Origin: Promethearchaeati archaeon
GTDB taxonomy: Archaea > Asgardarchaeota > Heimdallarchaeia > JABLTI01
Direction of reading: 5' to 3'
Length of the DNA stretch: 16,281 bases
NCBI GenBank assembly: GCA_013166835.1
Contig: JABLTI010000063.1
Span: 1-16,281, forward strand
The translations under genes and the position numbers were made by a program. The notes under the pieces were generated by a model, which saw only the letters and a list, made by a program, of their open reading frames with translations, had not been told where the DNA came from and made no database searches. Positions 514 to 16,281 of the stretch are shown piece after piece (positions within the stretch are counted from its first letter, which is position 1; every line of letters begins with the position of its first letter).

Positions 514-516
514 AAA

Positions 517-1470
517 TCATATTTTTTTTACTACTCTAGTTCCACTTTTATCATCTAAAGCAGCTATTGCATTTTCAGGTGAAGTAATAATTGAGAGTCT
601 CCCACCACATTCGATGAATTGTATTGCAGATTCTACTTTCGGTCCCATACTACCCTTTGCGAAATGACCATTATCAAACATTTTCTTTAATTTTGAAATT
701 TCGATTTTTTCTATTTTTTGCTGATTTTCTTTCCCATAATTAAGATATGCGTTTGAGACATCCGTTAAAAGCATCAAAATATCAGCATCAATTTGGGTTG
801 CTAATACTTCTGTGGCTCTATCTTTATCAATAACTGCATCAACATCAACATAAGTTCCATTCTCTTGAGCAACAGGAATTCCCCCTCCTCCTACTGCAAT
901 AACTATATCCCCTTCCTCTACACACCGTCTAATAGTAGACCCTTCAAGAATTTCTAAAGGAATAGGAGATGGAACAACTTTTCTAAAACCTCGACCTGCA
1001 TCATTTATGTAAGTGTCTTTAGTTTCCTTATGAAGCTTGATTGCTTCTTCTTCTGAATAAAATGGACCAATAGGTTTTGTTGGTTCCTTAAAAGCTGAAT
1101 CCTTGTGGTTAACAACTGCACGAGTAATAATAGCTACTACTCTTTTATCATGAATATCATGCTCGTATAATCGTTCTTCTAGAGCAGTTTGAATCATGAA
1201 ACCAATTTGTCCTTGTGACATAGCCCCACATATACTAAGAGGTTGTTCAGGTATCCCTTCGGTTACACCTGATTTTTGTTGAACAAGAATATTGCCAACT
1301 TGAGGACCATTTCCATGTGTAAGAATAACTCCAAAGCCTTTTTTAATTACGTTAATTATGACATCAGTCGCTTTTCTAAGATTTTCCATTTGCTGTTCGT
1401 AGGTCTTAGGTTGACCTTTTTGGAGGATCATATTTCCTCCTAGAGCAATGGCAATCAAATCCTTCGTCAT
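517..1470 (-). CDS. arcC: Carbamate kinase
   Basis: 317 aa with the amino-acid-kinase/carbamate kinase motifs IALGGN, THGNGPQVG, AMSQGQIG, PTKPIGPFY, RKVVPSP, GGGGIPV, AVIDKD, LTDV and GSMGPKV. Confidence 0.96.
   Translation of the reverse strand: MTKDLIAIALGGNMILQKGQPKTYEQQMENLRKATDVIINVIKKGFGVILTHGNGPQVGNILVQQKSGVTEGIPEQPLSICGAMSQGQIGFMIQTALEERLYEHDIHDKRVVAIITRAVVNHKDSAFKEPTKPIGPFYSEEEAIKLHKETKDTYINDAGRGFRKVVPSPIPLEILEGSTIRRCVEEGDIVIAVGGGGIPVAQENGTYVDVDAVIDKDRATEVLATQIDADILMLLTDVSNAYLNYGKENQQKIEKIEISKLKKMFDNGHFAKGSMGPKVESAIQFIECGGRLSIITSPENAIAALDDKSGTRVVKKI
522..529 (+). terminator. Candidate oligo-T (T8) terminator for the + strand hypothetical gene, lying inside the 3' end of arcC
   Basis: T8 tract 9 nt after the TAA at 513. 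The convergent genes are only 3 bp apart, and archaeal termination uses oligo-T tracts. Confidence 0.35.
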
Positions 1471-1498
1471 AATTTTTCAATCCTATATTCATTAAATT

Positions 1499-1523
1499 TA
1501 GATAGTAAAGAGGTTATTATCTA
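1499..1523. promoter_or_regulatory. Imperfect inverted repeat, candidate operator in the divergent arcC/HEAT intergenic region
   Basis: TAGATAGTAA-agagg-TTATTATCTA: 10-bp arms, 1 mismatch, 5-nt spacer, about 30-50 bp upstream of the arcC start. Confidence 0.35.
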
Positions 1524-1648
1524 CCATATTATCTTAAAAATCTTCTCAAAAAAAAGAAATAATATACATAAATATACTCTATTGTAGTAAAAATACTAAA
1601 CGCTAATATAGGAAATCAGCAAATATACTAATTACCGAGGGGTAGTCA

Positions 1649-2488
1649 ATGGCTGATGTTAATATATTAATGAAACAGTTAGCTAATACCAACGAAAAAG
1701 AGGCAAAATGTGCAACCATTACTAAATTGGGAAATTTGTGTGATGATGCAGCAGTAAAGATTCTAGTGAGACATCTTAATCAGGAAGAAGATAATGAGAT
1801 TAAGAGTTATGCAGCGAGTGCTTTGATTAATATTAGTAGTAAAAAAGCAACACAGATGTTAGTTCGTTTACTCAGAAGCGAATCATGGATTACTAGAATG
1901 AAAGCAGTTGAAACGCTTGGGGAACTCGAAGATAAGAAAGCAACCTTAACTCTAATTAGGGTACTTCGAAATGATTCTGAATCAAGTGTAAGGGAGTGGG
2001 CAGCGATTTCTCTAGGAAAAATTGGGGATAAAAAAGCAGTGAAACCATTAGTGAGTGCTTTAACTAAAGATTCACACTTTGAAGTTCGTATGGAAGCAGC
2101 AAAAGCTTTAGGAAAAATTAAAGACAAGAAAGCTAAGGGAGCATTAATTCAAGCATTCTATTCTGATGCTGAATATCAAGTTAGTTGGGCTTCAGCATCC
2201 GCACTAGCAAATTTAAATGATAGTGAATCCAAGAAACTTCTAAAGAAGTTGACTAAGGAACTTGTTAAAATTTTAGAAAGCGAAAAGGATGAAACAATTC
2301 TAAGTGCAGCTGCGAAAACTCTTGGAGAAATTGGGAATGAAATAGCAGCAAAAATAATGCTGAAGACAATGAAAATAAGTAAAGAATTAGTTAGACTGGA
2401 AATCAATTTAGCTCTAGGAAAAATGGCTAAACGTCTAAATTATAAAGATAGAGAGGAATTTATCGAATATATTAAGCTGAAAAGCTAA
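1649..2488 (+). CDS. HEAT-repeat (PBS-lyase-like) protein
   Basis: 279 aa made of tandem ~31-aa repeats (TRMKAVETLGEL, VREWAAISLGKIG, VRMEAAKALGKI, VSWASASALANL, LSAAAKTLGEIG, VRLEINLALGKM). A Shine-Dalgarno-like GAGGGG lies just upstream of the ATG. Confidence 0.92.
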   Translation: MADVNILMKQLANTNEKEAKCATITKLGNLCDDAAVKILVRHLNQEEDNEIKSYAASALINISSKKATQMLVRLLRSESWITRMKAVETLGELEDKKATLTLIRVLRNDSESSVREWAAISLGKIGDKKAVKPLVSALTKDSHFEVRMEAAKALGKIKDKKAKGALIQAFYSDAEYQVSWASASALANLNDSESKKLLKKLTKELVKILESEKDETILSAAAKTLGEIGNEIAAKIMLKTMKISKELVRLEINLALGKMAKRLNYKDREEFIEYIKLKS

Positions 2489-2527
2489 AAGAATAGATGA
2501 ATTTTAAAGAAAAGACGAAAAAAGAGG

Positions 2528-2553
2528 TTTTTTTGTTCTAACAGAGTCTTTTT
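2528..2553 (+). terminator. Candidate T-rich terminator after the HEAT-repeat gene
   Basis: T7 tract at 2528-2534 and a T5 tract at 2549-2553, downstream of the stop at 2488. Confidence 0.3.
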
Positions 2554-2593
2554 AACTAGAAACTGAGAAACAATGTAAAAGAGTTGACAGTTA

Positions 2594-3616
2594 ATGGAAA
2601 TATCGAAAGTTTATTTCTACGATAACGTCTCAAACTTGAAAGCAGGTGTAAACAGTTTTTTCAAAATGATTGTTGATGAATGCCAAACAGAAGAAGCTGT
2701 TGGTATCAAGATTCATTTTGGTGAAAAGGAAAATGATACACATGTGAGTGCAAAACATTTGAGTGATGTCACTAAATTCTTCAAGAAACCAGTTTTTGTC
2801 GAATGTAATGTTCTCTATCGTGGTAATCGATTAAGAAAAGAGGATCATATTAAACAAGCACATGATCACGGATTTGATTTCATAGAAATCGATATTCTTG
2901 ATGGTGAAATGGGAGAAGATTACATTGAAATTGAAATCGATACAAAAAACACACAGAAAGCAAAAATAGGGAGAGGAATTAAGAATTATGATAACTTGAT
3001 TTCAATATCTCATTTTAAAGGTCACATAGTCGCTGGTTTTGGTGGAGCTCTAAAGAATGTTGGTATGGGATTAGGATCACGCGGGGGAAAACTAGACATT
3101 CATGCTGGAGTATCTCCGCAAATAGATACTGTTAATTGCATAGCATGTGGCTCGTGTGCGGAACAATGCCCTGCAGACGCAATTACTGTAGATGATTATG
3201 CAGTTATAGATCAAGAGATATGCATTGGCTGTGCTCAATGTATTGCAGTTTGTCCAGAAGGAGTTATTAAAATTCCTTGGGGAAATAGACCAGCAAATGA
3301 ATTCTTGGAAAAAATGGCAGAATATGCCCTTGCCTGTGTTCAGAACAAGAATTGGTGGTACATTAATTTCTTAACAGATATTACGATGAAATGTGATTGT
3401 GTGGGGACAAGGCAACAACCATTTATGGAAGATATCGGTATTTTGTTTTCAAAAGATCCGATTGCAATTGATAAAGCATCTATGGATCTAGTTATAGAAC
3501 GAAATAACGGAGTGGATCCATTTAAATCTCACAACAAGAACAGCAACTATATTCTGAAATATGGAGAAGAAATTGGTCTGGGAAGTATTAAGTATGATTT
3601 AGAAATGGTTAAATAA
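2594..3616 (+). CDS. DUF362-family Fe-S protein with an inserted 2[4Fe-4S] ferredoxin domain
   Basis: DUF362-type motifs IKIHFGE, LYRGNR, SHFKGH..AGFGGALKNVGMG.GSRGGK, xCDC and DIGILFSKDPIAIDKAS. Two CxxCxxCxxxCP motifs (CIACGSCAEQCP, CIGCAQCIAVCP). Confidence 0.9.
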   Translation: MEISKVYFYDNVSNLKAGVNSFFKMIVDECQTEEAVGIKIHFGEKENDTHVSAKHLSDVTKFFKKPVFVECNVLYRGNRLRKEDHIKQAHDHGFDFIEIDILDGEMGEDYIEIEIDTKNTQKAKIGRGIKNYDNLISISHFKGHIVAGFGGALKNVGMGLGSRGGKLDIHAGVSPQIDTVNCIACGSCAEQCPADAITVDDYAVIDQEICIGCAQCIAVCPEGVIKIPWGNRPANEFLEKMAEYALACVQNKNWWYINFLTDITMKCDCVGTRQQPFMEDIGILFSKDPIAIDKASMDLVIERNNGVDPFKSHNKNSNYILKYGEEIGLGSIKYDLEMVK

Positions 3617-3652
3617 CCGAACTTTCTCTTTTTTTGTGTTTGTTGAATCATA

Positions 3653-4618
3653 ATGAGTAAACTTGAAACGACTGCAAATAATAATTCTATTCCAGATAGA
3701 AATGATCGAATGATTAAAGTTAGGAATATAACAATCATAGGTCTTGTAATTAACGTATTATTAGCTGTATTCAAGATAACAATAAGTATCCGATCAGGAA
3801 GTTTATCGTTACTTGCCGATGGTTTAGATTCAGCTTTAGATATAGCAACAGTAATTTTTGGTTTTGTAGCAATTAGAATTGCTGTTCGTCCTGCTGATAA
3901 AGACCATCATTTTGGTCATGCTAAATTTGAGAATTTCTTTTCATTAGGCGTTGCACTACTTTTAGTCGCTTCTTCAGGCATCATTGGTTATCAAGCAATA
4001 ACTAAATTAATCAACAAAACTTCATCTATTTACGATCCATATAATCTAATTATTGCAGCTATTAGCATAGTTCTCAAGGGAGTACTTGTTTGGCTAAATG
4101 TTAGTGTCGGTAAAAAGATAAAATCACCTATACTTGTGGCAAATGGCAAGAATTTTAGAACTGATATTCTTACATCTATTGTAGTACTTGTCTCTGTATC
4201 CATTGGTCACCGCTCTATTGGTTCATTCTCACTTTACTGGGTGGATCCAACAATTGCAATTATTATTAGTATTATAATTATAATTACTGCAATAGGTATC
4301 ACAAGGGATTCAGCTGGTGTTTTACTAGATGAAAGTCCAGATGAAGAAACTATGTTGAAAATAGAAAAATACACAAAAGAACAAACGGGTGTAAAAGAGA
4401 TTGGAAATATCAGAGCAAGAAGTGTTGGAGCTAATATATTTCTCGTAGATATAGATATTTACCTTGACCCTACATTAACAATTAGTGAAGGACACGATAT
4501 AGCATGTATAGTTGAAGATGCACTTAAAGAAAAATTACCTATAAAATATATACAAGTTCATGTTGAACCATATCACACACATGAAGAAGAAGAAAAAAAT
4601 GAACACGAGGAAAAATAA
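3653..4618 (+). CDS. Cation diffusion facilitator (FieF/YiiP/MntE-like divalent metal efflux transporter)
   Basis: CDF signature SLSLLADGLDSALD, the PADKDHHFGHAKFE loop, six hydrophobic segments, and a C-terminal dimerisation domain (LTISEGHDIA, QVHVEP) with a His/Glu-rich tail. Confidence 0.95.
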   Translation: MSKLETTANNNSIPDRNDRMIKVRNITIIGLVINVLLAVFKITISIRSGSLSLLADGLDSALDIATVIFGFVAIRIAVRPADKDHHFGHAKFENFFSLGVALLLVASSGIIGYQAITKLINKTSSIYDPYNLIIAAISIVLKGVLVWLNVSVGKKIKSPILVANGKNFRTDILTSIVVLVSVSIGHRSIGSFSLYWVDPTIAIIISIIIIITAIGITRDSAGVLLDESPDEETMLKIEKYTKEQTGVKEIGNIRARSVGANIFLVDIDIYLDPTLTISEGHDIACIVEDALKEKLPIKYIQVHVEPYHTHEEEEKNEHEEK

Positions 4619-4905
4619 TGAAGGAAGAAGCAGAGAAAACTGAGAAAGAAGCTTTTCAATTTACCACAAAGCATTTTACCATAATCATTCCTGTGGTTCT
4701 GATAATATCTATCGGTATTTTAGTAGCTGCAATTTATATGTTCATTAATCCAGGTCTTGTTAGTGGGATTGTTTTTGGAGCGGTTATGTTAGTACTCTTT
4801 ATTGCTCCCCTAACATTTGCTATCATATTCTATTATAAGAAGGTCAAAGTCCCAAGCCAAGAAATCACCGAGAAGAAAAAAATTGAAATCCAAAGAGTAA
4901 ATTAA
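4618..4905 (+). CDS. Small hypothetical membrane protein (2 TM helices)
   Basis: 95 aa with two long hydrophobic segments and charged termini. Its ATG overlaps the CDF stop codon (TAATG at 4616-4620), which suggests translational coupling. Confidence 0.8.
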   Translation: MKEEAEKTEKEAFQFTTKHFTIIIPVVLIISIGILVAAIYMFINPGLVSGIVFGAVMLVLFIAPLTFAIIFYYKKVKVPSQEITEKKKIEIQRVN

Positions 4906-4953
4906 ACGAAAAAATAGTTAAAGATGAAATCCAAGCAAGTTATGGTTTAATTG

Positions 4954-4961
4954 TTTATATT
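4954..4961 (+). promoter_or_regulatory. Candidate TATA box for the phosphatase-superfamily gene
   Basis: TTTATATT about 45 bp upstream of the TTG start. Weak, because the background is AT-rich. Confidence 0.3.
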
Positions 4962-5002
4962 AAAAAATTATCAACAATTGCTATCAATAGGAATGGTTTG
5001 AA

Positions 5003-6832
5003 TTGCAAAAAAGAAAAGTAAATCTCCTTTTAGTCTGGTTTGTTGTCATTATAACATTACAACTTTCATTTGGAATTAGGGCTCTAACAACTCAATTTGA
5101 TTTGAATAACAAACACAATATTGCTAGTGAGTTAGAAGTAGTACCACAGATTGGTACTCCTGCAGCAATTACCGATCAAGTATTGATATTTTTCGTAGAT
5201 GGAATGCGATATGATAAAATGCTTGAAGCAAACACTCCCAATATGGATTCTCTAATGGCTAATGGAACAACTTTTTCGAATTATCAGGTAATTTTACCAA
5301 GTTATAGTAGAGTAAATTATGCGGCCTTCTCTACAGGCTCAAGTACAAATATGACAAATGTTTTTGCAAATGGTTATGACGATGAATTAGAAATACCAAC
5401 TCTTTACAGCTTAATTACAGGTAATGATTTGAATAAGAGTCTTATAACAGATGAAGGTGGATGGGCGAAATTCTTAGGAAAAGATTCTGATGTTGTAGTA
5501 TATCCTGATACAGTATCACATTCATTTCAAGAAGGATTGGTAGTGAAAGAAGCAGCACTTGCTACTATTCCTGGTAATTTTTCTAATATACAATTTATTG
5601 GATTTGATGATGTTGATGCTGCCGGTCATGATTTTGGAGCTGCTTCAAGTACTTACATACAGATGATCGAAAATACTGATAGCTATATAGGAGAAATTCT
5701 CGATTTATACAATTCACTTGGACAACTAAATAATACAACGATTGTGCTTTTCAGTGATCATGGACATGAGGATATTGGAGGACATGGAGGTGAAACTTCT
5801 GCTCAAATACATGGATCTTTTATTTTTGCTGGAAAAGGAGTTTCAAATAAGGGTTTAATGTCTGATAAATTAACGAAAATTAATTCAATCACTCCTACAC
5901 TCTTAACGATGCTTGGTATTTCTTTAGCTCCAACAATGAACGGTCCTGTGCTTTTTGATTTCATTGATAGTACCATTCAGACTAAAGCAATTTATGCAAT
6001 TCAACAAGCTGAGATCATGAATCAGCAGCTTGAAGCAACAATAAATGAATTTGGAATTATGTCCAATAAAGCTAAATTACCGTATATTACTGGCGCAGAA
6101 TTAGTAACTGATAATATAACGTTAGCAAAAGGAAACTATTCAATCACACAGTACATTTCTTCATACAATTTAGCACAAGAAGCAGAAGAATCAGCAAGAC
6201 TTTACTTAAGCTTGTTATTGAAACAATTAAAATCTATATCAGAATTGTTGAGGACATTACTAATTATTGGTATTGTAACTCTCGTTTCAGCTACGATATT
6301 TTATCTAAATCGTCGCAGAATAATTGAAGTAGCTCATCAAGAGGTTTTTTCAAAAGACCAATTGATACCACAATTGCTTGGAATGCTTTCTGCAATTTCA
6401 ATTTGTATAATCATTTCAGCAATCTTTGGATTCAAATTTGCAGCAACAAGCTTCAATAGTACAAATCAAACAGTTCCACCAATATTAACATCATTTTTTG
6501 TATCTGGTGCTTTACTAGTTTTTCTCCCATGGTTAGCAATTTATCTTCTAAAAAGCAAATCTAGTGAATTTACAACTTTCAAAGAATGGAAAAAATTATT
6601 CATAAAATCATCAATAGGTTCAATGTTTTTCATCTCGTTACCGATATTTGGATATATCTTGTATTATATCGCACAATTCGGACCATGGCCAAGCTGGATT
6701 ATACCACCATTAGCTGATACATATGCGTTTTGGATAATCGGAATAATGCCTTGTATATTGTATATTATTCCTCTAATTTTAATGCTCATCTTATGGAGAA
6801 GTGGAAAAAAGGATAAAGCAGCTATAGGTTAA
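5003..6832 (+). CDS. Membrane-anchored alkaline-phosphatase-superfamily enzyme (NPP / GPI ethanolamine-phosphate-transferase-like)
   Basis: TTG start (an in-frame TAG lies at 4988-4990) and an N-terminal hydrophobic helix. Metal-binding and catalytic motifs are FFVDGMRYD, LPSYSRVNY (Ser nucleophile position), DVDAAGH and FSDHGHEDIGGHGG, followed by about 5 C-terminal TM helices. Confidence 0.88.
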   Translation: MQKRKVNLLLVWFVVIITLQLSFGIRALTTQFDLNNKHNIASELEVVPQIGTPAAITDQVLIFFVDGMRYDKMLEANTPNMDSLMANGTTFSNYQVILPSYSRVNYAAFSTGSSTNMTNVFANGYDDELEIPTLYSLITGNDLNKSLITDEGGWAKFLGKDSDVVVYPDTVSHSFQEGLVVKEAALATIPGNFSNIQFIGFDDVDAAGHDFGAASSTYIQMIENTDSYIGEILDLYNSLGQLNNTTIVLFSDHGHEDIGGHGGETSAQIHGSFIFAGKGVSNKGLMSDKLTKINSITPTLLTMLGISLAPTMNGPVLFDFIDSTIQTKAIYAIQQAEIMNQQLEATINEFGIMSNKAKLPYITGAELVTDNITLAKGNYSITQYISSYNLAQEAEESARLYLSLLLKQLKSISELLRTLLIIGIVTLVSATIFYLNRRRIIEVAHQEVFSKDQLIPQLLGMLSAISICIIISAIFGFKFAATSFNSTNQTVPPILTSFFVSGALLVFLPWLAIYLLKSKSSEFTTFKEWKKLFIKSSIGSMFFISLPIFGYILYYIAQFGPWPSWIIPPLADTYAFWIIGIMPCILYIIPLILMLILWRSGKKDKAAIG

Positions 6833-6927
6833 ATTTGTTCATTAGAACCATTTCTTCTATTTATTGAGCAAAATTCTTTTTTATTTTCTTTCTTAATATT
6901 CTATAATCTATTTCTGGAGGATATGAG

Positions 6928-7350
6928 ATGGAAGAAAAAACTCTGTCAACAGATGAAGCTATTCTTGAGGAATTAAAACAAATTCGTGAACATCTAGTAC
7001 CTAAAGAAGAAGAGATAGTAGAAGCACCAAAAAAACGATTACAACGAATTAGAAATTTCGGGGATGAATTCATTGTCTTCATTCGTAAATACAAAGTCTT
7101 AGGACTTGCAGTTGCATTTATCATTGCAACATATGTTGGACTATTAGTACAATCACTTGTTGATGATATAATTATGCCTATATTTCAATATATTCCCGGC
7201 CTCAAGGATTTAGATAGTTTGGAAAGCTGGCAAGCAGGTCCATTTTTCATTGGAAGTTTCATTTCTGCAATAATTACATTTACAATAATTTCAATTGTTA
7301 TGTTTATAATTGTTAAAGCTGGCAACAAAATAGGACTTGAATCTGATTAA
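6928..7350 (+). CDS. mscL: Large-conductance mechanosensitive channel
   Basis: S1 helix EFIVFIRK, TM1 VLGLAVAFII..LVQSLVDDIIMPI and TM2 GSFISAIITFTIISIVMFIIVK match the MscL pattern. A GGAGG Shine-Dalgarno lies at 6916-6920. Confidence 0.92.
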   Translation: MEEKTLSTDEAILEELKQIREHLVPKEEEIVEAPKKRLQRIRNFGDEFIVFIRKYKVLGLAVAFIIATYVGLLVQSLVDDIIMPIFQYIPGLKDLDSLESWQAGPFFIGSFISAIITFTIISIVMFIIVKAGNKIGLESD

Positions 7351-7364
7351 TGTGATTCCGCTGC

Positions 7365-7386
7365 TTTCCTTTCTTTTATTTTTTTT
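7365..7386 (+). terminator. T-rich terminator after mscL
   Basis: TTTCCTTTCTTTTATTTTTTTT directly downstream of the mscL stop, in the gap between convergent genes. Confidence 0.5.
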
Positions 7387-7424
7387 AGAGTTTCTTTAAC
7401 AGGTCAAAAATTTAAAGATCCTTC

Positions 7425-10400
7425 TTAGACAGAAAAATCAGAAATACATTCTAAGAACAGTTTTGACACTTTTTCTATTGAAGTGTACAAACCAACAATA
7501 TCATTACGATCACCACTACTAATTCCATTGAAAACTTCTTCTACAATCTTTGGAATAGCATTGATAACTGACTGGAAGATTTCTAAATCATCTTTTGAAT
7601 GAATAGCTGCATCCATACTTTTCAAAGCAGCTTTTGCATGTCTATCAGCTTGTTTGTAATCATAATCTATTAATGATGTAAGAGCTTTCTCTGTGAGAAT
7701 AATGGAATCGCCTATGAAAATCTTTGTTTGTTTAGAAATATGTTCTAATGAGGTTTCATCTAAACTTAATTTTTTATGGAGGGAAGTTATTAAAATTTCT
7801 TTTTCTGTTGCAGGATCATCCTTCATCTGTCTAGCTAATTTTGATCTTCTGCGAGGAGAAATAGCCTTTTGTGTTATTAATCCTTTTGAGATTTCAGTCA
7901 CACCAAAGTATTTCTTTACAAGATCTATTGATCCTTTGAATCTAGCCATATTTACATGGGTATCATCTGATATAGCGTCTCTATAAATAAATTCGAATTC
8001 AGTAGCAAAGAGCTTCAGTTTCTGTAAATGAGCGGGTTTGACTTTGTTTACTACTAATACTGTATCTCCATAACTACTTGTATAGATTAGCAGATGTTTT
8101 TTACCAAACTCAACAGTTTCTATATCAAATTTCGACTGTTTACCAATTATTTCTTCAAGTATTCCTCTGATACCACTCATTGCACCACCAAATAGCTGTT
8201 CATCTGTGGTCATTTGAGTTGAATAAGGAAGGTATAGAACTGTTAATCCAGATTTCAAAATATAGGAGATATTATGAATTTCATCATGCCAACCTCTATT
8301 CATAATTGGTTTTCTAAGTGAAACAACCATTACTATGGAAAGGATAAGGAATACTACTAAACCAACAACAACTGGCACCAGAGGAAAGTCTGATACAATT
8401 GGTTCAGAAACAAGAGTGAAGTAATAAGTATCAGAATTAGCATTACCAGCTAAATCAGTGTAAGTAAAATTAACTGTATAGGAGCCAAGAAGTAAAATAT
8501 CAAAACTCAAAACAATATCATATTGATAAATGGAACCATGCGAAACCACAGAATTGTATATCATTTCAAAAGTTTGATTATAACCTGGCCCAAGTAAATT
8601 GACTTCTACTTTGTTAATCCCATAAGTATCTATAATATGAACTGTTAGCGTGTGATTGTTTAAACCTGCTTCCTCATATTGTATTATATCCCTAGGAGCA
8701 GTATTAAAGACATTATAATCAATTCTGGGATCTTGGAAAAAGACTGGAAGCACTGTGTCAATAATTAAGAAATAGATTTCTCTGCTTTCTCTGCTGGCTT
8801 TATCCATAATGGATACAGTCAAATTATGATAGTCCATTCCAACGAGGAAGTCTTCATCTAAAGTATATATTATTCTCATAATAGGGATATAAACGTAATC
8901 CGTGCCAAAATCCTCTTCAAATACACTGTTTGTGTTATCAGCAATTACTGATATAGATTTGATACCTATACCTGGATTATTTATGGTTAAATCAAATTCT
9001 ATATTTCCACTATTTCGATATTCTAGATCATTAAGAGAGGTATAAAACTGGGGGGAAGTTAAAGAAACCAAGACAATTATTGTCACATTGCCTTTATTTC
9101 CAGCATTATCGTAACCATAAATAATCAATTCATAATACCCACTGAATCCAGTAATATTCAAGTTATTACTGAATGGAGGGGTTGTTTCTCTAATAATTCT
9201 AATACTGCCAAAATCAATTCTAAAGGATTCTAATCCAGAACCAACATCTTGACTGAACCATTCTACATGCACATTTGAATCAAGAATGACTGAATTATTG
9301 GTAGGATTAATCATCAAAACTTGAGGTGGAGATTGATCTACCGTTATCCAATGAATGTCTTCATAAATTTTCATATCGGTTGTTACAGCTCTAATTGTGA
9401 TGTTATAGATTGGATATTGATCTATTGGAATAACACCTAAATTAATAGTACATGTAAAGGTAGTATTTGAATAACTATTGTATAATGTGTTATTGACATA
9501 GACTTCGAAATGGTCAATATTTAAATTATTAACATCCCAGATAATATCGAAAGATGTAGAATTAATGTAGGTAAACATTTTGCTTGGATCAACTAAAATA
9601 ATAGTTGGAGCACTTGTATTTTGAATAACTGTAATTTCTTGATCTGTGTAATAACCTAGGTAATCAAAAGCTTGGATGGTTATAATTGCAGATTCATTTT
9701 CAGTGAGTGTGACAAAATAATTCGAGGTTTTTACATCGAAAATTGTGTCTAGTAAGGTTCCATTAACAAATATCTTGAATTGTTCAAGCCCTACTCCCAC
9801 ATCGAAGGATTCCCAAGAAACGATAATGTAAGCAAGACCAGTTGTATAATTATCAGGTGGATGATCAATAGTTAAATTTGGGGCTGATTGATCAAGAATT
9901 ATACTAAAAACATCAGTATGAGTATTTCCTGCTTTGTCAAATGCTGTTATTGCTACATCTTTGTTACTTTCATTGCCAAGATCAACAAGATCACTCATAA
10001 TTAAAGGAGAATAGGAATCATACAAAACACCATCAATTGTTAGTTGAGTTTGTTCTATGCCAGTACCTAATAGATTGTCTGTTGCATTCCAAGACAAAGC
10101 TATTGTCTGAGAATTTGTGTAATAGGTTCCATCTCCTAGTTGTGGCAGAATTATTGGATCAAAAGAGACATCCGGATTCACAGTATCTCGAGTAATTGTT
10201 ATGGAATTAGATGCAAAATTACCTAAGACATCATATGTTACTACCTCAATCAAATAATCCTTGTCAGTGTTTAGATCTATATTGAAAGTACTAGCAGAGC
10301 TAGTGCCTTGAGAAACACTATCAATAAAAATTTCCGAATAGTCAATTGAAGAATGAACATCAGAAGCGTCCCAATAGATATCTAAATTTGACACTTTGAC

Positions 10401-12923
10401 AGCAACTCCATCAAGTGGAGAAGTGATAGAAACAATGGGGGGAGTTGTATCTTTAATCACAATTATTGAGGACCTTCCTTCTAAGAGAGTATCATCAACT
10501 GCTATAACTGTAATATTCCAAGTTCCATCACTTGGCAGGGGAATGTTATAGGTTTCTAAAATTGTAGATGGAGTTATTTCTGTCTCATTTCGATATATTT
10601 TGTAATAATCAAAATCACCATCAGGATCGGAGTTATTATAACTTATATCCACAGAACCACTTGTAGTTAGAAAATTATTTGGGGGACTAATAATGGTAAC
10701 TTGTGGAGCTTTCACATCAAATTTCACAGTAATACTATCAGTCGCACTTTTTCCAGAATAGCTGTAGGTTATTAATTGAATGGCATTGTTTCCAGCAAAT
10801 AGAAATACATCAGATGAAGTGATACTTCCTCCAACTCGATTTTGAAAGACTCCTTTAACATAAATATCAGTGTGATGTACTGAAACAAATTCAGAAATTA
10901 GATCCCATGTTACGGTGACACTTTCTTGAGAAGAGACATATCCTGAACTTGGACTAGTTATTGATATTCTAGGAGCATCACCTTTACCTAGAACAAGAAT
11001 CTGACCCAGGGTATCTCCAAGGATAATCTCATTTTCACCATCATGATCTATATCGAAAACTACTATTGAATTCCTTTTGCCAAAAGAGGTACCAAAATCA
11101 CCTGACCAATTCAAGTGAAAATCAAATGAAGAACCACTATCAGTGACACAACCAACATAAACAGTACCATTATTTGCACTGAAAATCAGCTCATTTCGAC
11201 CATCTTGATTTATATCCGCTATGGTAGCTCCTCCACCCATTGATGGTTGAGATGTTTGATCATTTATGAGTAATTCTAATGCAGGAGCAGGATCGGAAAA
11301 TGAATTGTAACCATTAAAAATTTTCAAGTAATTCTTACCTACAATGATAATATCATTAATTGAATCACCATCAATGTCGTCTACTATGATTGTATGACCG
11401 AAATTGTCCTCAGTAATTGATGTCGAACCAATAGGAAGATCATCCTCTGGATTATCTTGATATTTGGGAATTGTTCGTAAATAAATACGTAAATTAGTTA
11501 ATGAAATAGAATTATCAGCAGAAATTTGAGCGGAAAAAAGTAGTTCTTTATCATAATCAGTATCCATATTAGCAACTAGTATACTGTGAATTCTAGTTGC
11601 GCCTATTGGGCTGAATGGTGATCGAAAGTCATGGTCAAAACTATCACCTACTGAATCATATTCTAAGACAATAATACCACCATTTTGATCACCAGCCACT
11701 AAATCAGTATAAGTATCATTATCAGCATCACCAATTTCAAGATAGCCCATAAATGCAGAAGTATGAGTAAAAACAGTTTCAGACACCCCGAAATCATTGG
11801 AAGTCGTATTCCATTCACTGAGCCGCAAGATAGTATTTGAAGAGCCTAACATATATAATTCATCTTTTCCATCGCCGGTAAAATCATGTGCAGCGATACC
11901 AGACATTACAGTTGTTAATAAAGATTGATGGCTAGTTTCCCAGCTAGCCCAGATTCTTTGATAATCACCTGAACGATAATCAAAAATTGCGACTAAATAA
12001 TTATCACCGAGAACAGTTCTATTTGAGCTTACTATTAATTCAAGGTCACTGTTACCATCAATATCTGCAGTAGTTAGGAATGTACCATTACCATACCCAG
12101 TAGCTGTCGATTTGATATTGAAATTTTCTTCAACAACATAATCAAAAGATGTTTGTGTACTAATGCCTAGCTCAATGTCTCCCCATGAGAAAGCATTCGA
12201 TCGTATCTCATCTTGATTACCACTAATATAAGGCCAAATAATTCCAGCATTACTGCTACCATAATTATCCGTTGCTTCAAACCCAATACCGAGTACTTTT
12301 CCAGAAGAACTTGAAATAGCAGTAAATGGTATCTTAAATTCATATTGCCTATGAGTATTTGTTGAATCGAAATCTGAAGGATTAAAGGAAGTTGAAAGCA
12401 AAATTCCGCTACTTGCTAGAGGAATATCTAATGAACCAGATTCAATGGCGATCCAAGCAGATAGTGATATGCTATATGAAAGAAACTCTACAAACTGACC
12501 GGAAGAATTTGAGGTAAATCTAACCATTCTATCAATTGAACTTAGTTGACCATTATGATCACTGTCAAAGAAAATTGAACTACCCCAAGCTGGTACTGGA
12601 GTTTCTACTTGTAAGTTTAAAACGTCCAATCCAATATAAAAATAAACATCATTATTTTGTAGGAATAATTTCCCTCCAATTTGATCTGTTGAATTGTAAA
12701 GATTGTAAATTGATGCGGAGGTCCATTCTTGATCCATATCATCATGAACGAAATTTATTTGCCCATTAATATTTGGCGCTGTGTTATTCCAAATTGAGAA
12801 AATCTCTGTAGGATAAGCAATAGCAGAATGTCCTGAAGTAGGGAGATTTGTAATAAGGAATGGACTTAGAACAAATATTAAAGATAGAATCAAATATAGA
12901 GCGATATTTCTGTAACATTTCAT
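7425..12923 (-). CDS. Giant type I membrane protein: signal peptide, DOMON/CBM9-like domain, 7x FG-GAP/VCBS beta-propeller, ~9 Ig-like repeats, TM helix, cytoplasmic longin-like domain, helical C-terminus
   Basis: Uninterrupted 1832-aa ORF with an N-terminal hydrophobic signal. DOMON/CBM9-like pattern APNINGQI..EW..LFLQNNDVYFYIGLDV..FFDSDHNG..YEFKIPF (~12165-12790), seven DxDxDG-type loops, repeated (A/P)PxxxIxxP..AxDxxGN units, TM VPVVVGLVVFLILSIVMVVSL followed by RK (~8315-8387), and an intracellular ILKSGL..DEQLFGGAMSGIRGILEEI..LKLFATEFEFIY segment. Confidence 0.93.
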   Translation of the reverse strand: MKCYRNIALYLILSLIFVLSPFLITNLPTSGHSAIAYPTEIFSIWNNTAPNINGQINFVHDDMDQEWTSASIYNLYNSTDQIGGKLFLQNNDVYFYIGLDVLNLQVETPVPAWGSSIFFDSDHNGQLSSIDRMVRFTSNSSGQFVEFLSYSISLSAWIAIESGSLDIPLASSGILLSTSFNPSDFDSTNTHRQYEFKIPFTAISSSSGKVLGIGFEATDNYGSSNAGIIWPYISGNQDEIRSNAFSWGDIELGISTQTSFDYVVEENFNIKSTATGYGNGTFLTTADIDGNSDLELIVSSNRTVLGDNYLVAIFDYRSGDYQRIWASWETSHQSLLTTVMSGIAAHDFTGDGKDELYMLGSSNTILRLSEWNTTSNDFGVSETVFTHTSAFMGYLEIGDADNDTYTDLVAGDQNGGIIVLEYDSVGDSFDHDFRSPFSPIGATRIHSILVANMDTDYDKELLFSAQISADNSISLTNLRIYLRTIPKYQDNPEDDLPIGSTSITEDNFGHTIIVDDIDGDSINDIIIVGKNYLKIFNGYNSFSDPAPALELLINDQTSQPSMGGGATIADINQDGRNELIFSANNGTVYVGCVTDSGSSFDFHLNWSGDFGTSFGKRNSIVVFDIDHDGENEIILGDTLGQILVLGKGDAPRISITSPSSGYVSSQESVTVTWDLISEFVSVHHTDIYVKGVFQNRVGGSITSSDVFLFAGNNAIQLITYSYSGKSATDSITVKFDVKAPQVTIISPPNNFLTTSGSVDISYNNSDPDGDFDYYKIYRNETEITPSTILETYNIPLPSDGTWNITVIAVDDTLLEGRSSIIVIKDTTPPIVSITSPLDGVAVKVSNLDIYWDASDVHSSIDYSEIFIDSVSQGTSSASTFNIDLNTDKDYLIEVVTYDVLGNFASNSITITRDTVNPDVSFDPIILPQLGDGTYYTNSQTIALSWNATDNLLGTGIEQTQLTIDGVLYDSYSPLIMSDLVDLGNESNKDVAITAFDKAGNTHTDVFSIILDQSAPNLTIDHPPDNYTTGLAYIIVSWESFDVGVGLEQFKIFVNGTLLDTIFDVKTSNYFVTLTENESAIITIQAFDYLGYYTDQEITVIQNTSAPTIILVDPSKMFTYINSTSFDIIWDVNNLNIDHFEVYVNNTLYNSYSNTTFTCTINLGVIPIDQYPIYNITIRAVTTDMKIYEDIHWITVDQSPPQVLMINPTNNSVILDSNVHVEWFSQDVGSGLESFRIDFGSIRIIRETTPPFSNNLNITGFSGYYELIIYGYDNAGNKGNVTIIVLVSLTSPQFYTSLNDLEYRNSGNIEFDLTINNPGIGIKSISVIADNTNSVFEEDFGTDYVYIPIMRIIYTLDEDFLVGMDYHNLTVSIMDKASRESREIYFLIIDTVLPVFFQDPRIDYNVFNTAPRDIIQYEEAGLNNHTLTVHIIDTYGINKVEVNLLGPGYNQTFEMIYNSVVSHGSIYQYDIVLSFDILLLGSYTVNFTYTDLAGNANSDTYYFTLVSEPIVSDFPLVPVVVGLVVFLILSIVMVVSLRKPIMNRGWHDEIHNISYILKSGLTVLYLPYSTQMTTDEQLFGGAMSGIRGILEEIIGKQSKFDIETVEFGKKHLLIYTSSYGDTVLVVNKVKPAHLQKLKLFATEFEFIYRDAISDDTHVNMARFKGSIDLVKKYFGVTEISKGLITQKAISPRRRSKLARQMKDDPATEKEILITSLHKKLSLDETSLEHISKQTKIFIGDSIILTEKALTSLIDYDYKQADRHAKAALKSMDAAIHSKDDLEIFQSVINAIPKIVEEVFNGISSGDRNDIVGLYTSIEKVSKLFLECISDFSV
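8410..10979 (-). repeat. About nine tandem Ig-like (bacterial Ig/Big-type) protein repeats of ~90-115 aa
   Basis: Repeat starts APRISITSP, APQVTIISP, PPIVSITSP, NPDVSFDP, APNLTIDHP, APTIILVDP, PPQVLMINP, SPQFYTSL and LPVFFQDP. Ends include TYDVLGN, AFDKAGN, AFDYLGY, GYDNAGN and YTDLAGN. The repeats are diverged at DNA level. Confidence 0.8.
11017..12069 (-). repeat. Seven FG-GAP/VCBS-type Ca-binding repeats (7-bladed beta-propeller)
   Basis: DIDGNSDLE, DFTGDGKDE, DADNDTYTD, NMDTDYDKE, DIDGDSIND, DINQDGRNE and DIDHDGENE, spaced about 52-64 aa apart and each followed by a hydrophobic strand. Confidence 0.88.
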
Positions 12924-12944
12924 TAGTTAAATTCCCTTTATTCC

Positions 12945-12980
12945 AGTAATATTATCTTAATTTGCTTCGACAATATTACT
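12945..12980 (-). promoter_or_regulatory. 12-bp inverted repeat/hairpin just upstream of the giant surface-protein gene
   Basis: The + strand reads AGTAATATTATC-N12-GACAATATTACT. The single mismatch becomes a G:U pair in the - strand transcript. Confidence 0.5.
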
Positions 12981-13033
12981 AATTCTGCTTTCTAGGTATA
13001 TATCAAGTGTGCTTTAAAAAATAAAATTTTAAC

Positions 13034-13042
13034 AAAAAAAAA
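13034..13042 (-). terminator. Oligo-T (T9) terminator of guaA
   Basis: A9 on the + strand (T9 on the - strand) about 30 nt after the guaA stop, followed by further T tracts. Confidence 0.5.
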
Positions 13043-13070
13043 GGCTAGCTAATTAAAAATAATCTTTAAA

Positions 13071-14636
13071 TCACTCCCATTCGATAGTTGCAGGCGGTTT
13101 GGAAGTAATATCATATACTACTCGATTTACTTTTTTGACTTCATTGATTATACGATTGGAAATTACTGCTAAAGTTTCATAAGGAATTTTTGACCAATCA
13201 GCGGTCATAGCATCAATGGAATCAACTGAACGCAAAACTACAGTCCACTCATATGTTCGGGAATCGCCCATAACACCCACAGATTTTACGGGGAGAAGAA
13301 CAGAAAAACTTTGCCAGTAATTATTGTATTCATCTCTTTTTTTAATTTCTCCAATGAAAATCGCATCGACTTCTTTAAGAGTATCTAATCGCTCTTGTGT
13401 TACTTCACCTAGAATACGAACCGATAATCCTGGACCAGGAAAAGGATGTCTTTCTATCAACTCAGAGGGAATTTTTAGTAATCTACCAACTTCTCTAACT
13501 TCATCTTTATAGAGCTCTTTTAGTGGTTCAACAACTTTCAAGGACATTTTTTCAGGTAATGCTACATTATGATGACTCTTAATTTTTGCAGCTGTTTCTG
13601 ATGGCTGTGCAGATTCTATTCTATCAGGATAAATGGTTCCTTGAGCTAAATAGCCAAATGTCCCGTGCTTCTTTGTCAGTTTCTTTTCAAACGCTTCAAA
13701 TGCCTCAATGAATTTGAAAGCAATTATTTTCCTTTTTTCTTCAGGATCCTTGACACCTTTAAGAGCTTTCAAGAAGGTTTGTTGAGCGTCCAATCGATAG
13801 AAATTTGCAAATTTTAAATCTTCCTTGAAATACTTCACCACTTGTTCAGGTTCATCTTTTCGCATGAATCCATGATCAACAAAGACACAATAGAGACGAT
13901 CACCAATGCTTTGGTGAAGAAGGATTGCTGCCACAGTGGAATCTACTCCACCGCTTACACCTATAATAACTCGATTCTCCCCTACTTCATCTCTTATCTC
14001 TTTAATTTGCTGTTCGATATAACTTTCCATAGACCAATTCTTCTTAAGATTAGAAATTGTTAAAATGAAATTACTCAAGAGTATCATGCCATTATCAGTA
14101 TGAACAACTTCTGGATGAAATTGTAACCCAAAGATTTTTCTCTCAAGGTTCTCGAAGGCAGCAATTTCGCAATTATCACTGGATGCAGTTATCTCAAAAT
14201 CGGATGGTAATTTAGATATCTTGTCCCCATGGGACATCCACACTTTGTTTTCTTTTCCAAAGCTTTTGAACAAATTCTGATCATTTTTAATCTGAATCAT
14301 TGTATGCCCATATTCTTTCTGGTCTCCTTGGATAACTTTGCCACCATAATATTGAGAGATGAATTGATGACCATAACACAATCCTAAAACAGGAATTTTT
14401 TGTTTCTCAATAAATTCCATGGTTTCATCTGAGATTTTTGGAGCCTTCTTATCATAGACGCTATTTGGTCCACCCGAAAAAATAATTGATTTAACATTGT
14501 TCGAAAGTAATTCATCTGGTTTTACTCTCCAAGAGAAAATCTCAGAATGAACACCTAACTCCCTTACTCTCCTAGCAATTAAATGAGCATATTGTCCTCC
14601 AAAATCTATAACTGCAACTATATTCTTTTGTGACAT
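13071..14636 (-). CDS. guaA: GMP synthase (glutamine-hydrolysing), fused GATase + ATP-pyrophosphatase form
   Basis: DFGGQYAHLIARRVRE, GLCYGHQ (catalytic Cys), QFHPEV, PP-loop SGGVDS, QGTIYPD, IKSHHNV, PFPGPGL and terminal YDITSKPPATIEWE. The ATG at 14636 is preferred over the track's TTG at 14663 because the family homology begins there. Confidence 0.97.
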   Translation of the reverse strand: MSQKNIVAVIDFGGQYAHLIARRVRELGVHSEIFSWRVKPDELLSNNVKSIIFSGGPNSVYDKKAPKISDETMEFIEKQKIPVLGLCYGHQFISQYYGGKVIQGDQKEYGHTMIQIKNDQNLFKSFGKENKVWMSHGDKISKLPSDFEITASSDNCEIAAFENLERKIFGLQFHPEVVHTDNGMILLSNFILTISNLKKNWSMESYIEQQIKEIRDEVGENRVIIGVSGGVDSTVAAILLHQSIGDRLYCVFVDHGFMRKDEPEQVVKYFKEDLKFANFYRLDAQQTFLKALKGVKDPEEKRKIIAFKFIEAFEAFEKKLTKKHGTFGYLAQGTIYPDRIESAQPSETAAKIKSHHNVALPEKMSLKVVEPLKELYKDEVREVGRLLKIPSELIERHPFPGPGLSVRILGEVTQERLDTLKEVDAIFIGEIKKRDEYNNYWQSFSVLLPVKSVGVMGDSRTYEWTVVLRSVDSIDAMTADWSKIPYETLAVISNRIINEVKKVNRVVYDITSKPPATIEWE

Positions 14637-14685
14637 AGTTAATGCTACCATGCTAAAACCCAATATAGCTTTTTTAATTGTTCAG

Positions 14686-14694
14686 TTTATATAA
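14686..14694 (-). promoter_or_regulatory. Candidate TATA box for guaA
   Basis: TTATATAAA on the - strand, about 50 bp upstream of the likely ATG at 14636. Confidence 0.45.
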
Positions 14695-14740
14695 TTATGT
14701 TAATTTTTTAACAACTAAAATCCTGCAAATAACAAATTAT

Positions 14741-16281
14741 TTAGCGTTTTTTTGGAAAGGTTATCACGAAAATTGTCCCTAAACCCTCTTCACTTTCAAA
14801 ACCCATAGACCCACCATGTGCTTCCACAATTTTAAGAGCAATTAACAAACCAAATGAAGCGTAACTTTCCTTCGTCCAAGCTTTCCGAACTTCTTTTTGC
14901 CGATCTATAGACATCCCTCTTCCATTATCTTGGATTTCAATTTGTTTTTTATGTGGGAAATCTTTCCCAACAATATGCACTTTAGAAGCATCAGCATGTT
15001 TGATGACATTGATTAACAAATTTTCAAACACTTGTTTCAATTTTACTCTATCCCCCTTTAAAGTAGGCAAATCACGAATGCTTACCTTAAGATTAGGATC
15101 CAAGGATTTTATTTCTGAAACCAGTTCATTCGTTAATTCCGTCAGATTTACTGAAGTGATTTCACCCAATATTTCTCCCTCTTTGGCTAGAAATAAAAGG
15201 TCTTCAAGGAAATTTGTTGTTTCAACTATTTGTTGATCCACTTTGTCTGCGAAATCTGAATTACTCATGGAATTATACATGGAGATAATTTGTAATTTCC
15301 CTCGAATATCATGAGCAATTGTTGTGGCAAATTCCTCTAACTCATCTCTTTGTTTTTTCAGCATTTTTTGATTTTGATTGAGTACTTCCTGTGTTTTCAA
15401 TCGTTTAGTAATGTCTTGAATAACACCAAGGAAGGCAGTTGGTTTCCCATCTGCATCAGTTAAAAGTGTAGCATTCAACTCTCCAATATATTTTGAACCA
15501 TCTTTTCTTAACATTCTATACTGCATGTTTTTCATTCGACCAGTTTTCAAGGTTTTTTCAAGATTTTTAGCAGCTAACTTTTGATCCTCTTGAGCTATTA
15601 AATCAAAGGCACTTTTCCCAATCAATTCTTCTTCTATCTCTCCCCCATACAAATCTAGTGATTCTTGATTAATCATTAGGATTTTTCCGGTTAGATCTGT
15701 GACTAAAATCGAAAGAGGAGATGTTTCAACTAACTTTCTGTATCTTTCTTCACTAAATCGAAGTAATTCTTCTGCATTCTTGCGTTCCAAAATCGTTGCG
15801 AAAAATCGAACGATTGTTTCAAAGAAAATCCATTTTTCACTTGGAATGTATTTAGGAGTTTTAGATGCTAAATGAACTATCCCCAAAAGCTTGTTGTCAG
15901 CACTAACTATTGGCCAAGTAATTATGGATTGAATGTTCAATTCTTTTAATCGATTTTTATAGGGAAGTAGTTCTTTACTCTTGTTTACATCAGCAGAAAT
16001 TATAGCTATCCTGCTGTTTGCTACAAGAACTGAAATATGTTTATCATCTTCTAAGTGTTGATCTTCTACTAGCATATTTTTTTCTTTTGTAGTTCCATAA
16101 AAAGCTGTCAGTTTGAGAATTTTTGTTAAGGGATTATATAATCGAATAGTGCCTATATCAAAACCTAAAGTTGTAACTAAATCCCGTAAAACATCATTAC
16201 ACAAGTTTGTCATTTGCGATTTGCCGATTGCAGATTCAGCTATTAATTGGAATGCTTTTCGTTCTAGATTTATTGTGTTCT
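14741..16281 (-). CDS. GAF-PAS sensor histidine kinase, 5'-truncated by the window edge
   Basis: The frame stays open from 16213 to the right edge (NTINLERKAFQLIAESAIGKSQ then MTNL). GAF (IQSIITWPIVSADNKLLGIVHLAS), PAS/PAC (SEERYRKLVETSP..RKDGS..GVIQDITKR), H-box AHDIRG, N-box QVFENLLINVIKHA, G1 QDNGRGM and the terminal IVEAHGG..GTIFVITFP. Confidence 0.93.
   Translation of the reverse strand, partial: NTINLERKAFQLIAESAIGKSQMTNLCNDVLRDLVTTLGFDIGTIRLYNPLTKILKLTAFYGTTKEKNMLVEDQHLEDDKHISVLVANSRIAIISADVNKSKELLPYKNRLKELNIQSIITWPIVSADNKLLGIVHLASKTPKYIPSEKWIFFETIVRFFATILERKNAEELLRFSEERYRKLVETSPLSILVTDLTGKILMINQESLDLYGGEIEEELIGKSAFDLIAQEDQKLAAKNLEKTLKTGRMKNMQYRMLRKDGSKYIGELNATLLTDADGKPTAFLGVIQDITKRLKTQEVLNQNQKMLKKQRDELEEFATTIAHDIRGKLQIISMYNSMSNSDFADKVDQQIVETTNFLEDLLFLAKEGEILGEITSVNLTELTNELVSEIKSLDPNLKVSIRDLPTLKGDRVKLKQVFENLLINVIKHADASKVHIVGKDFPHKKQIEIQDNGRGMSIDRQKEVRKAWTKESYASFGLLIALKIVEAHGGSMGFESEEGLGTIFVITFPKKR

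Follow-up and report, generated by a model that had tools for sequence, protein, structure and literature searches.

We describe a large gene in a 16,281-nucleotide stretch of archaeal DNA, referred to here as the window (Promethearchaeati archaeon, GenBank assembly GCA_013166835.1, contig JABLTI010000063.1, positions 1 to 16,281, forward strand). The gene is read as encoding a surface receptor with a large ectodomain, one transmembrane (TM) helix and a cytoplasmic tail. What is new in this analysis is that a syntenic contig of a related archaeon, called L001 below, keeps the junction between the last immunoglobulin (Ig)-like unit, the TM helix and the tail, and that the divergence between the two genes jumps at the membrane. 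The features of the gene are listed below with their positions in the window and, where they apply, the amino acid (aa) positions in the protein.

7425..12923, minus strand: the whole receptor gene, 1832 codons plus stop, one unbroken open reading frame (ORF)
12825..12923, minus strand: signal-peptide-like N-terminus, aa 1-33, placed by hydropathy and sequence (K2, R5, hydrophobic core at aa 5-30, then ..TSGHSA)
12138..12824, minus strand: N-terminal head domain with no family match, aa 34-262
10974..12137, minus strand: seven FG-GAP-type repeats, each with a DxDxDG-like acidic loop, aa 263-650
8409..10973, minus strand: stalk of nine Ig-like units of the Glucodextran_B/Big_7 type, aa 651-1505
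8391..8411, minus strand: step in nucleotide (nt) identity to L001, aa ~1505-1511, from 57-77% on the ectodomain side to 80-98% over the TM helix and tail
8313..8384, minus strand: single TM helix, aa 1514-1537, placed by hydropathy and 96% identical in L001
7863..8312, minus strand: tail module 1, aa 1538-1687, conserved alpha/beta, a candidate longin/roadblock-superfamily domain from language-model leads; ratio of nonsynonymous to synonymous divergence (dN/dS) 0.19
7428..7862, minus strand: tail module 2, aa 1688-1832, conserved and predicted all-helical from secondary structure only, no family; dN/dS 0.25

An earlier note on this DNA had described the same ORF from its sequence, and the coordinates agree: it is a single uninterrupted minus-strand frame of 1832 aa. 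The G+C content is even along the ORF, at 31-36%. Stop codons are expected to be frequent at this composition, so an open frame of 5.5 kb is not a chance product. Since the longest direct DNA repeat within the ORF measures only 47 nt at 70% identity, repeat collapse is unlikely. Upstream lies guaA, separated from the receptor gene by an AT-rich spacer of 147 nt, and the MscL gene on the downstream side is convergent with the receptor gene.

Only two hydrophobic segments are found by hydropathy in the whole protein, at aa 5-30 and aa 1514-1537. The first is signal-like, with K2 and R5 preceding the core; the cleavage site behind it was placed by inference and not with a prediction tool. The second is flanked by the acidic stretch SEPIVSDF before it and by a basic stop-transfer, RKPIMNR, after it. 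The two sides of this helix have different compositions. The ectodomain (aa 31-1513) has a net charge of -135 with 2.0% lysine and 2.0% arginine, and holds 30 N-x-S/T sequons against the 21.1 +/- 4.0 expected from shuffles. The tail (aa 1538-1832, 295 aa) has a net charge of 0 with 10.2% lysine and 3.4% arginine, and its single sequon compares with an expected 1.1 +/- 0.9. Composition and charge thus support a likely type I topology, with the N-terminus outside and the C-terminus inside. The signal peptide and the one TM helix with its basic stop-transfer, both proposed in the earlier note, were recovered in this way.

Relatives of the receptor were sought in one scan of genome contigs with the tail as query, which gave 59 pattern matches, two of them confirmed and both close (86%). 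L001 is an 8175-nt contig of a Candidatus Heimdallarchaeota metagenome-assembled genome (MAG). It is syntenic with the window, carries the same six flanking genes and is 89.5% identical to the window flanks over 6744 aligned nt. The other, L002, is a 3090-nt Heimdallarchaeota contig that ends at tail residue 71. The L001 contig stops within the receptor gene, 157 codons before the tail begins, and the 452 codons that it keeps cover the last Ig unit together with the TM helix and tail. All 452 columns align in frame and gapless. A chimeric origin of the Ig-TM-tail arrangement is therefore unlikely, because the junction recurs in frame in an independent assembly.

The divergence between the window and L001 is distributed unevenly along these codons. 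The last Ig unit is 59% identical in aa and 68% in nt, with a synonymous divergence (dS) of ~2.0, which is saturated, and a dN/dS of 0.13. The TM helix is 96% identical in aa and 93% in nt (dS 0.22, dN/dS 0.09). Tail module 1 is 88% identical in aa and 90% in nt (dS 0.30, dN/dS 0.19), and tail module 2 shows 85% and 90%, respectively (dS 0.28, dN/dS 0.25). For comparison, the six flanking genes have dS values of 0.25-0.63. A 60-nt sliding window places the step in nt identity at the outer face of the membrane. Positive selection alone does not account for this step, since synonymous sites are affected too. In sequence terms, it is as if the ectodomain of a much more distant allele had been attached to a TM helix and tail that are conserved. 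This pattern suggests recombination or cassette replacement of the ectodomain, that is, an exchangeable ectodomain on a conserved tail. As an observation in its own right, both L001 and L002 end inside the receptor gene, which is consistent with assemblers breaking on strain variation there.

The outer part of the protein begins with a domain of about 230 aa that the earlier note had called glycan-binding. The searches lend this assignment no support. For aa ~34-262, there was no Pfam match at E<=10, the NCBIfam search gave only Firmicu_CTERM (E=0.012, 15.6 bits against a cut-off of 50), and the PDB sequence search gave a single match at E=0.86. The following region, aa 263-650, is presumed from its sequence to form a 7-bladed Ca-binding propeller. 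When the whole protein was compared with Pfam, FG-GAP_3 (PF13517) matched at E 3.2e-11 with 44.1 bits (cut-off 26.9) and FG-GAP at E 5.7e-6 with 26.5 bits (cut-off 22.1). The seven acidic loops counted in the earlier note are all present: DxDxD-type loops lie at aa 287, 347, 399, 454, 516, 570 and 624, with spacings of 60, 52, 55, 62, 54 and 54 aa. A pattern written post hoc to fit all seven loops occurred on average 0.48 times, and at most four times, in 5000 shuffles of aa 280-650. Taken singly, five of the seven blades (1, 2, 5, 6 and 7) match FG-GAP or FG-GAP_3 at E<=0.1, and no single blade reaches the Pfam cut-off by itself. In a leave-one-out profile test, all 200 shuffles scored below blades 1, 3, 5, 6 and 7 but not below blades 2 and 4, so that one test or the other backs 6/7 blades. 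A sequence search of the PDB with the propeller region returned four sequences at E<=1. The best was CRTAC1 (9etn, E=3.9e-5), followed by ITFG2 twice (E=0.25 and 0.26) and one uncharacterised protein. Beta-prop_BBS7 in Pfam also matched weakly (E=0.012, below cut-off). These weak ITFG2 and BBS7 matches fit an Asgard-eukaryote "BBS7/ITFG2" structural cluster that is mentioned in the excerpted text of PMC13734099. By its matches, the predicted propeller is of the general prokaryotic FG-GAP/VCBS kind.

The stalk can be divided at recurring D-x-x-x-P-x-V linkers into nine units of 88-113 aa each. Its family types are Big_7, Glucodextran_B and Big_13. Big_7 (PF17957) matches at E 1.6e-15 with 57.9 bits (cut-off 24.1) when the whole protein is compared with Pfam, and Glucodextran_B matches aa 651-736 at E 2.9e-6 with 27.6 bits (cut-off 27). 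As single units, seven of the nine match an Ig-type family at E<=0.1, the exceptions being units 5 and 8. Units 1-7 beat all shuffles in the leave-one-out test; units 8 and 9 did not. The earlier count of about nine Ig-like repeats is thus a fair one, made up of seven clear units and two divergent membrane-proximal units (8 and 9).

The cytoplasmic part, put at ~290 aa in the earlier note, measures 295 aa and has a cytoplasmic-type composition. By prediction, ~140 aa of it form an alpha/beta module and ~145 aa a helical one. The earlier note had called the tail longin-like, and we examined this identity with a protein-language-model search of the Atlas, restricted to named clusters and run with tail residues 1-150. 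The three nearest neighbours are Asgard clusters, with proteins of 140-148 aa. The nearest (0.90, 181/256 features shared) is a hypothetical cluster from Thorarchaeota. The others are a "Clathrin adaptor complex small chain domain-containing" cluster (0.88, 173/256 features) and a "Roadblock/LAMTOR2 domain-containing" cluster (0.88, 172/256 features), with Fuz_longin_1 found on 22% of the members of the latter. With the whole tail as query, the roadblock cluster falls to rank 20 with a score of 0.78. Scores of up to 0.9 serve as a lead only, since 4-10 in 100 shuffled proteins reach that level, and they are not calibrated for parts of proteins.

A second lead comes from the predicted secondary structure of the tail, obtained by DSSP on a low-confidence model and by Chou-Fasman smoothing, both of them crude. 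In tail numbering, the elements are a strand (~14-19), a strand (23-29), a helix (~37-56), a possible strand (62-69), a strand (73-79), a strand (83-90) and two helices (93-114 and 122-136). The two methods give the same answer for strands 2, 4 and 5, for helix 1 and for the two helices at the end. Strand 1 is called a helix by the low-confidence model, and strand 3 is missed there and is not clear by either method. About 11 residues separate the stop-transfer from the first predicted element, which is a helix by one method and a strand by the other. According to the excerpted text of PMC10933270, longin domains have the topology beta-beta-alpha-beta-beta-beta-alpha-alpha, comprise ~120-140 aa and have no N-terminal helix. 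The combined crude order of tail module 1 is compatible with this longin order. On the language-model neighbours and this crude order, we consider membership of module 1 in the longin/roadblock superfamily to be slightly favoured. A prediction of a two-copy complex of the module (146 aa) gave ipSAE values of 0.02 and 0.07 against a mark of 0.42, and counts neither way.

Fusions of longin domains are themselves already in print. Excerpts of bioRxiv 10.1101/2020.10.19.343400 describe Asgard longin fusions to signalling domains amid extensive domain shuffling, and the excerpted texts of this preprint and of PMC10933270 together describe longin domains fused to GTPases, TRAPPC3 and two-component signalling domains. 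The tail resembles the Asgard longin/roadblock proteins in having a ~140-aa module, in its nearest language-model neighbours and in a compatible order of strands and helices. It differs from them in having no sequence match to any longin/roadblock family in Pfam or the PDB. No mention of a longin/roadblock-type module behind the TM helix of an adhesin-like ectodomain was found in the literature searched, which was represented by excerpts and did not cover supplementary tables. The same literature search found no paper for "FG-GAP" with "Asgard", and "integrin-like" with "Asgard" gave only an unrelated beta4-like family.

These features can be combined into a proposal of how the protein might work. 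The head would bind an external target, which could be a partner cell, a surface or a polymer, and the stalk would set its distance from the membrane. The ectodomain would be exchanged or diversified between lineages. Purifying selection would maintain the TM helix and tail, since these would dock onto cytoplasmic machinery that is itself conserved. The docking module would most likely be a longin/roadblock-superfamily domain together with the helical module, and its partners may be proteins such as small GTPases. In this way, a GTPase or membrane-remodelling circuit could be directed to the place of outside contact by the receptor, which would act as a localised platform rather than as an enzyme. 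A tail that stays fixed while ectodomains are swapped like cassettes suggests a receptor family with one common intracellular output. The joint reading, to which we give an even chance, is that of a single-pass surface glycoprotein of type I, made by a close archaeal relative of the Heimdallarchaeota MAGs, with an exchangeable ectodomain and a docking tail. A more specific version is tentative. It holds that this is a receptor of Asgard archaea (Heimdall group) in which an exchangeable Ca-stiffened propeller on a stalk is wired through one TM helix to a longin/roadblock-type platform, that contact recruits or regulates a small GTPase, and that the whole is a convergent analogue of integrin.

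Several results weigh against this proposal, many of them concerning the tail. At E<=10, neither the whole tail nor its first 153 aa matched any Pfam family; the second half alone matched NBAS_11th at E=0.048, below the cut-off. When the three orthologous tails were compared with Pfam, only the unrelated Peptidase_S49 appeared (E=0.13), and NCBIfam at E<=0.1 gave two matches far below their cut-offs. Searches of the PDB with phmmer and with a profile returned only cytochrome P460 and a phosphotransferase system (PTS) IIA component at E 0.33-2.1, the profile search giving these same two at E 0.33-0.86. Robl_LC7 had no match to the tail in Pfam, and a tblastn search of plasmids with the tail gave one irrelevant record at E=6. 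The limits of the Atlas scores and the disagreements over strands 1 and 3, both described above, count in the same direction. The earlier note had looked to AlphaFold and Foldseek for a decision, and both were run. The AlphaFold2 model of the tail, built from an alignment of three sequences that are 86% identical, is unusable, with a predicted local distance difference test (pLDDT) score of 39.2 and a predicted template modelling (pTM) score of 0.28. A Foldseek search of the PDB with this poor model placed 0 of at least 500 matches at E<=0.001, which says nothing given the model. Among these matches, the AP-2 sigma chain (rank 42, E=1.8) was given no weight. The proposed longin identity, in favour of which stand the language-model neighbours and the crude strand/helix order, is thus neither shown nor refuted.

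Further points of this kind lie outside the tail. The single-sequence AlphaFold2 model of aa 30-650 has a mean pLDDT of 33.3 with no residue at or above 50, so neither the closure of the propeller nor the fold of the N-terminal domain can be read from it. Blade 4 has no profile support and depends on its loop and spacing. The N-terminal domain is without a family. A strain-chimeric contig in one assembly or the other could likewise have produced the step in divergence. Among the 11 neighbouring ORFs there is neither a small GTPase nor a second gene of the longin/roadblock kind, and none encodes a vWA protein. For the GTPase and longin/roadblock genes this absence is weak evidence, because the GTPase genes of one Lokiarchaeon are, in the excerpted text of PMC10933270, generally not in operons with roadblock, longin and TRAPPC3 genes.

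The protein might instead be an ordinary archaeal adhesin or envelope protein, in which the tail serves only for anchoring, assembly or turnover, has a fold specific to the lineage and is unconnected with GTPases or trafficking. FG-GAP_3 and Big_7, which pass the Pfam cut-offs here, are common in prokaryotic surface proteins, and the searches of Pfam, NCBIfam and the PDB assign the tail to no known family. The window is without a GTPase gene, and Ca-type loops in all seven blades are the bacterial pattern given in the excerpted text of PMC3192720. However, a mere anchor would need no 295 aa kept at 85-88% identity with dN/dS values of 0.19-0.25 beside an ectodomain unit at 59%, and the nearest language-model neighbours of the tail module are Asgard clusters of the roadblock/longin type. 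We regard such an adhesin as possible, although doubtful. Another possibility is that the tail module has a profilin-like or an unrelated alpha/beta fold and links the receptor to the cytoskeleton rather than to a GTPase. Profilin, longin and roadblock domains have a common core fold, according to the excerpted text of PMC10933270, the order of secondary structure elements is only crudely defined here, and no family-level match separates these options. Nevertheless, profilin is not the label of any of the three top named clusters in the Atlas and the window contains no actin or profilin gene, and we consider a cytoskeletal link of this sort unlikely.

The layout itself raises the question of integrins, since the earlier note had compared the protein with an integrin alpha chain while cautioning that it may be an analogue rather than a homologue. 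The layout holds, with a signal, a head, seven FG-GAP repeats, an Ig-like stalk, one TM helix and a cytoplasmic part in type I topology. Integrin-repeat-containing eukaryotic signature proteins (ESPs) in Asgard genomes were, moreover, reported by Liu et al. 2021, as cited in the excerpted text of PMC9258230. Both observations would fit a true homologue, an archaeal forerunner sharing descent with integrin alpha beyond the FG-GAP superfamily. Yet every integrin-specific feature tested failed. From the excerpted text of PMC3192720, the Cage motif of integrin blades is phi-phi-G-phi X13-20 P X2-15 G X5-8, metazoan integrins bind Ca in blades 5-7 and some also in blade 4, and bacterial seven-repeat "integrin-type" propellers have a Ca site in every blade. 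A scan of aa 263-650 found the Cage motif in 0/7 blades, the GAP tripeptide is absent from the entire protein, and the Ca-type loops occur in all seven blades rather than in blades 4/5-7. No integrin leg family is among the seven Pfam families at E<=1, the stalk being of the Big_7/Glucodextran_B type, and no integrin chain is among the four PDB sequences at E<=1, where CRTAC1 is the best. As the earlier note had it, the protein contains no GFFKR-like motif, and a vWA- or integrin-beta-like match is missing from the 11 neighbouring ORFs. Descent shared with integrin alpha beyond the FG-GAP superfamily is, on these results, highly improbable. It is scarcely credible that the ORF is an assembly chimera of an ectodomain gene and an unrelated cytoplasmic gene. 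In its favour, L001 breaks off within the receptor gene 157 codons before the tail and L002 does so at tail residue 71, and the divergence from L001 changes abruptly at aa ~1505-1511. Against it are the in-frame, gapless Ig-TM-tail junction in L001, the even G+C content of 0.31-0.36, the frame open for 5.5 kb in AT-rich DNA and the longest direct repeat in the ORF of 47 nt at 70% identity. The earlier note had named a chimera as one of the cases in which its reading would fall. With respect to the Ig-TM-tail junction the ORF holds in L001, and for aa 1-1380 the window is the sole source of continuity with the rest of the protein.

The reading as a transmembrane adhesion-type receptor is reasonable, and comparison with known systems places it more closely. 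Integrin alpha has a three-domain thigh/calf leg and a short tail. With metazoan integrin alpha, the receptor shares the seven-repeat FG-GAP head, the Ig-like leg, the one TM helix and the type I topology. It differs in the missing Cage motif (0/7), in its Ca-type loops in all blades and in having no GFFKR motif. Its leg belongs to another Ig family with ~9 units against three, its tail is 295 aa long against a short one, and no beta partner lies in the window. On the features compared, the kinship to integrin is generic only; the likeness is one of layout and not membership of the integrin alpha family. Judged by its families, the protein belongs with the prokaryotic FG-GAP and Big-domain surface proteins: FG-GAP_3 and Big_7 are both above cut-off, and the protein has a signal and a membrane anchor, in line with the secreted, surface-anchored FG-GAP/VCBS and Big-domain proteins. 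It differs from these in the conserved 295-aa cytoplasmic part behind the TM helix and in the family-less N-terminal domain of 230 aa. CRTAC1 is a secreted matrix protein and ITFG2 is a cytosolic subunit of KICSTOR. These two are the best and the next-best solved-structure sequence matches of the propeller region, respectively, and neither has the stalk, the TM helix or the tail of the receptor. The proposed combination of parts has a parallel in the conservons of Streptomyces, in which a histidine-kinase-like membrane sensor (CvnA), a roadblock protein (CvnB) and a GTPase (CvnD) are encoded by separate genes of one operon. The proposed likeness lies in a sensor embedded in the membrane that acts with a small GTPase and a protein of the roadblock type, whereas the candidate module of the receptor would be fused to an ectodomain like that of an adhesin, and no adjacent gene encodes a GTPase. 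The bacterial propellers in the excerpted text of PMC3192720 are alike in having one Ca-type loop in each of seven repeats. The five bacterial examples given there differ from the receptor, which has no Cage motif, in that they were selected for this motif.

Asgard archaea have many small GTPases and longin/roadblock proteins, and the inputs to these circuits are largely unknown. They also live attached to partner cells. If the tail is a longin/roadblock module, a surface contact sensor would be physically joined to a GTPase-regulator fold. This would be a prokaryotic coupling of adhesion to membrane remodelling, and it would bear on how cell contact and membrane dynamics came to be linked in the ancestors of eukaryotes. 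Should the tail have another fold, the gene is still a clear case of a conserved cytoplasmic module with a rapidly replaced ectodomain, a pattern useful for population-level studies of archaeal surface variation. A claim of integrin kinship would add little, because the FG-GAP propeller is widespread in prokaryotes and Asgard integrin-repeat proteins are already in print.

Nothing in the window suggests an operon with the receptor gene. On its downstream side lie genes for an amino-acid kinase, a HEAT/PBS-lyase-like protein, a DUF362 protein with ferredoxin-type clusters, a cation-diffusion transporter, a membrane-like ORF of 95 aa, a 609-aa protein of the alkaline-phosphatase superfamily and the convergent MscL. 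On the upstream side, guaA and then a GAF-PAS histidine kinase gene share the strand of the receptor gene. In the window, neither Rfam nor tRNA scans gave a match. A sigma-70 promoter scan of the window, using a model that is not applicable to archaea, gave 34 sites against 35.3 expected, which is chance. The histidine kinase (14741-16279, minus strand; GAF, PAS and HATPase_c domains) lies two genes upstream of the receptor and is open at the window end, and the window contains no response regulator.

The MscL-family gene (6928-7350, plus strand; 140 aa; Pfam MscL E=2.3e-16) stands between the receptor gene and the gene of the 609-aa protein. It is missing from L001 (1360-1441) and L002 (679-746), where the gap is ~70-80 nt against ~590 nt in the window. 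The difference, next to the 3' end of the receptor gene, is an insertion or deletion of the size of a gene. The CDF cation-efflux gene (3653-4618, plus strand) is clearly more diverged from its counterpart in L001 (78% aa identity, dS 0.63, dN 0.14) than the other five flanking genes (85-94% aa identity, dS 0.25-0.51).

The other flanking genes gave several further observations. The 279-aa protein (1649-2488, plus strand) consists almost entirely of HEAT/PBS-lyase-type repeats (HEAT_2 4.5e-71). In NCBIfam it comes closest to phycobilin lyases of the NblB/CpcE type, far below their cut-offs and with a name unexpected for an archaeon, and the protein is probably a generic HEAT scaffold. Two conserved ORFs are without a significant family, one of 170 aa at 1-513 (plus strand, open at the window edge) and the 95-aa ORF at 4618-4905 (plus strand). 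The latter occupies the same position in L001 and L002 and has a membrane-embedded look from weak matches. The 609-aa protein (5003-6832, plus strand) begins with a TTG start. Its first half matches Phosphodiest (2.8e-19), Sulfatase and PglZ (1.8e-4), and its second half has a weak membrane-permease-like match to the ArsG family (E=0.014, aa 415-548). This protein may be a membrane-anchored phosphodiesterase or sulfatase-like enzyme.

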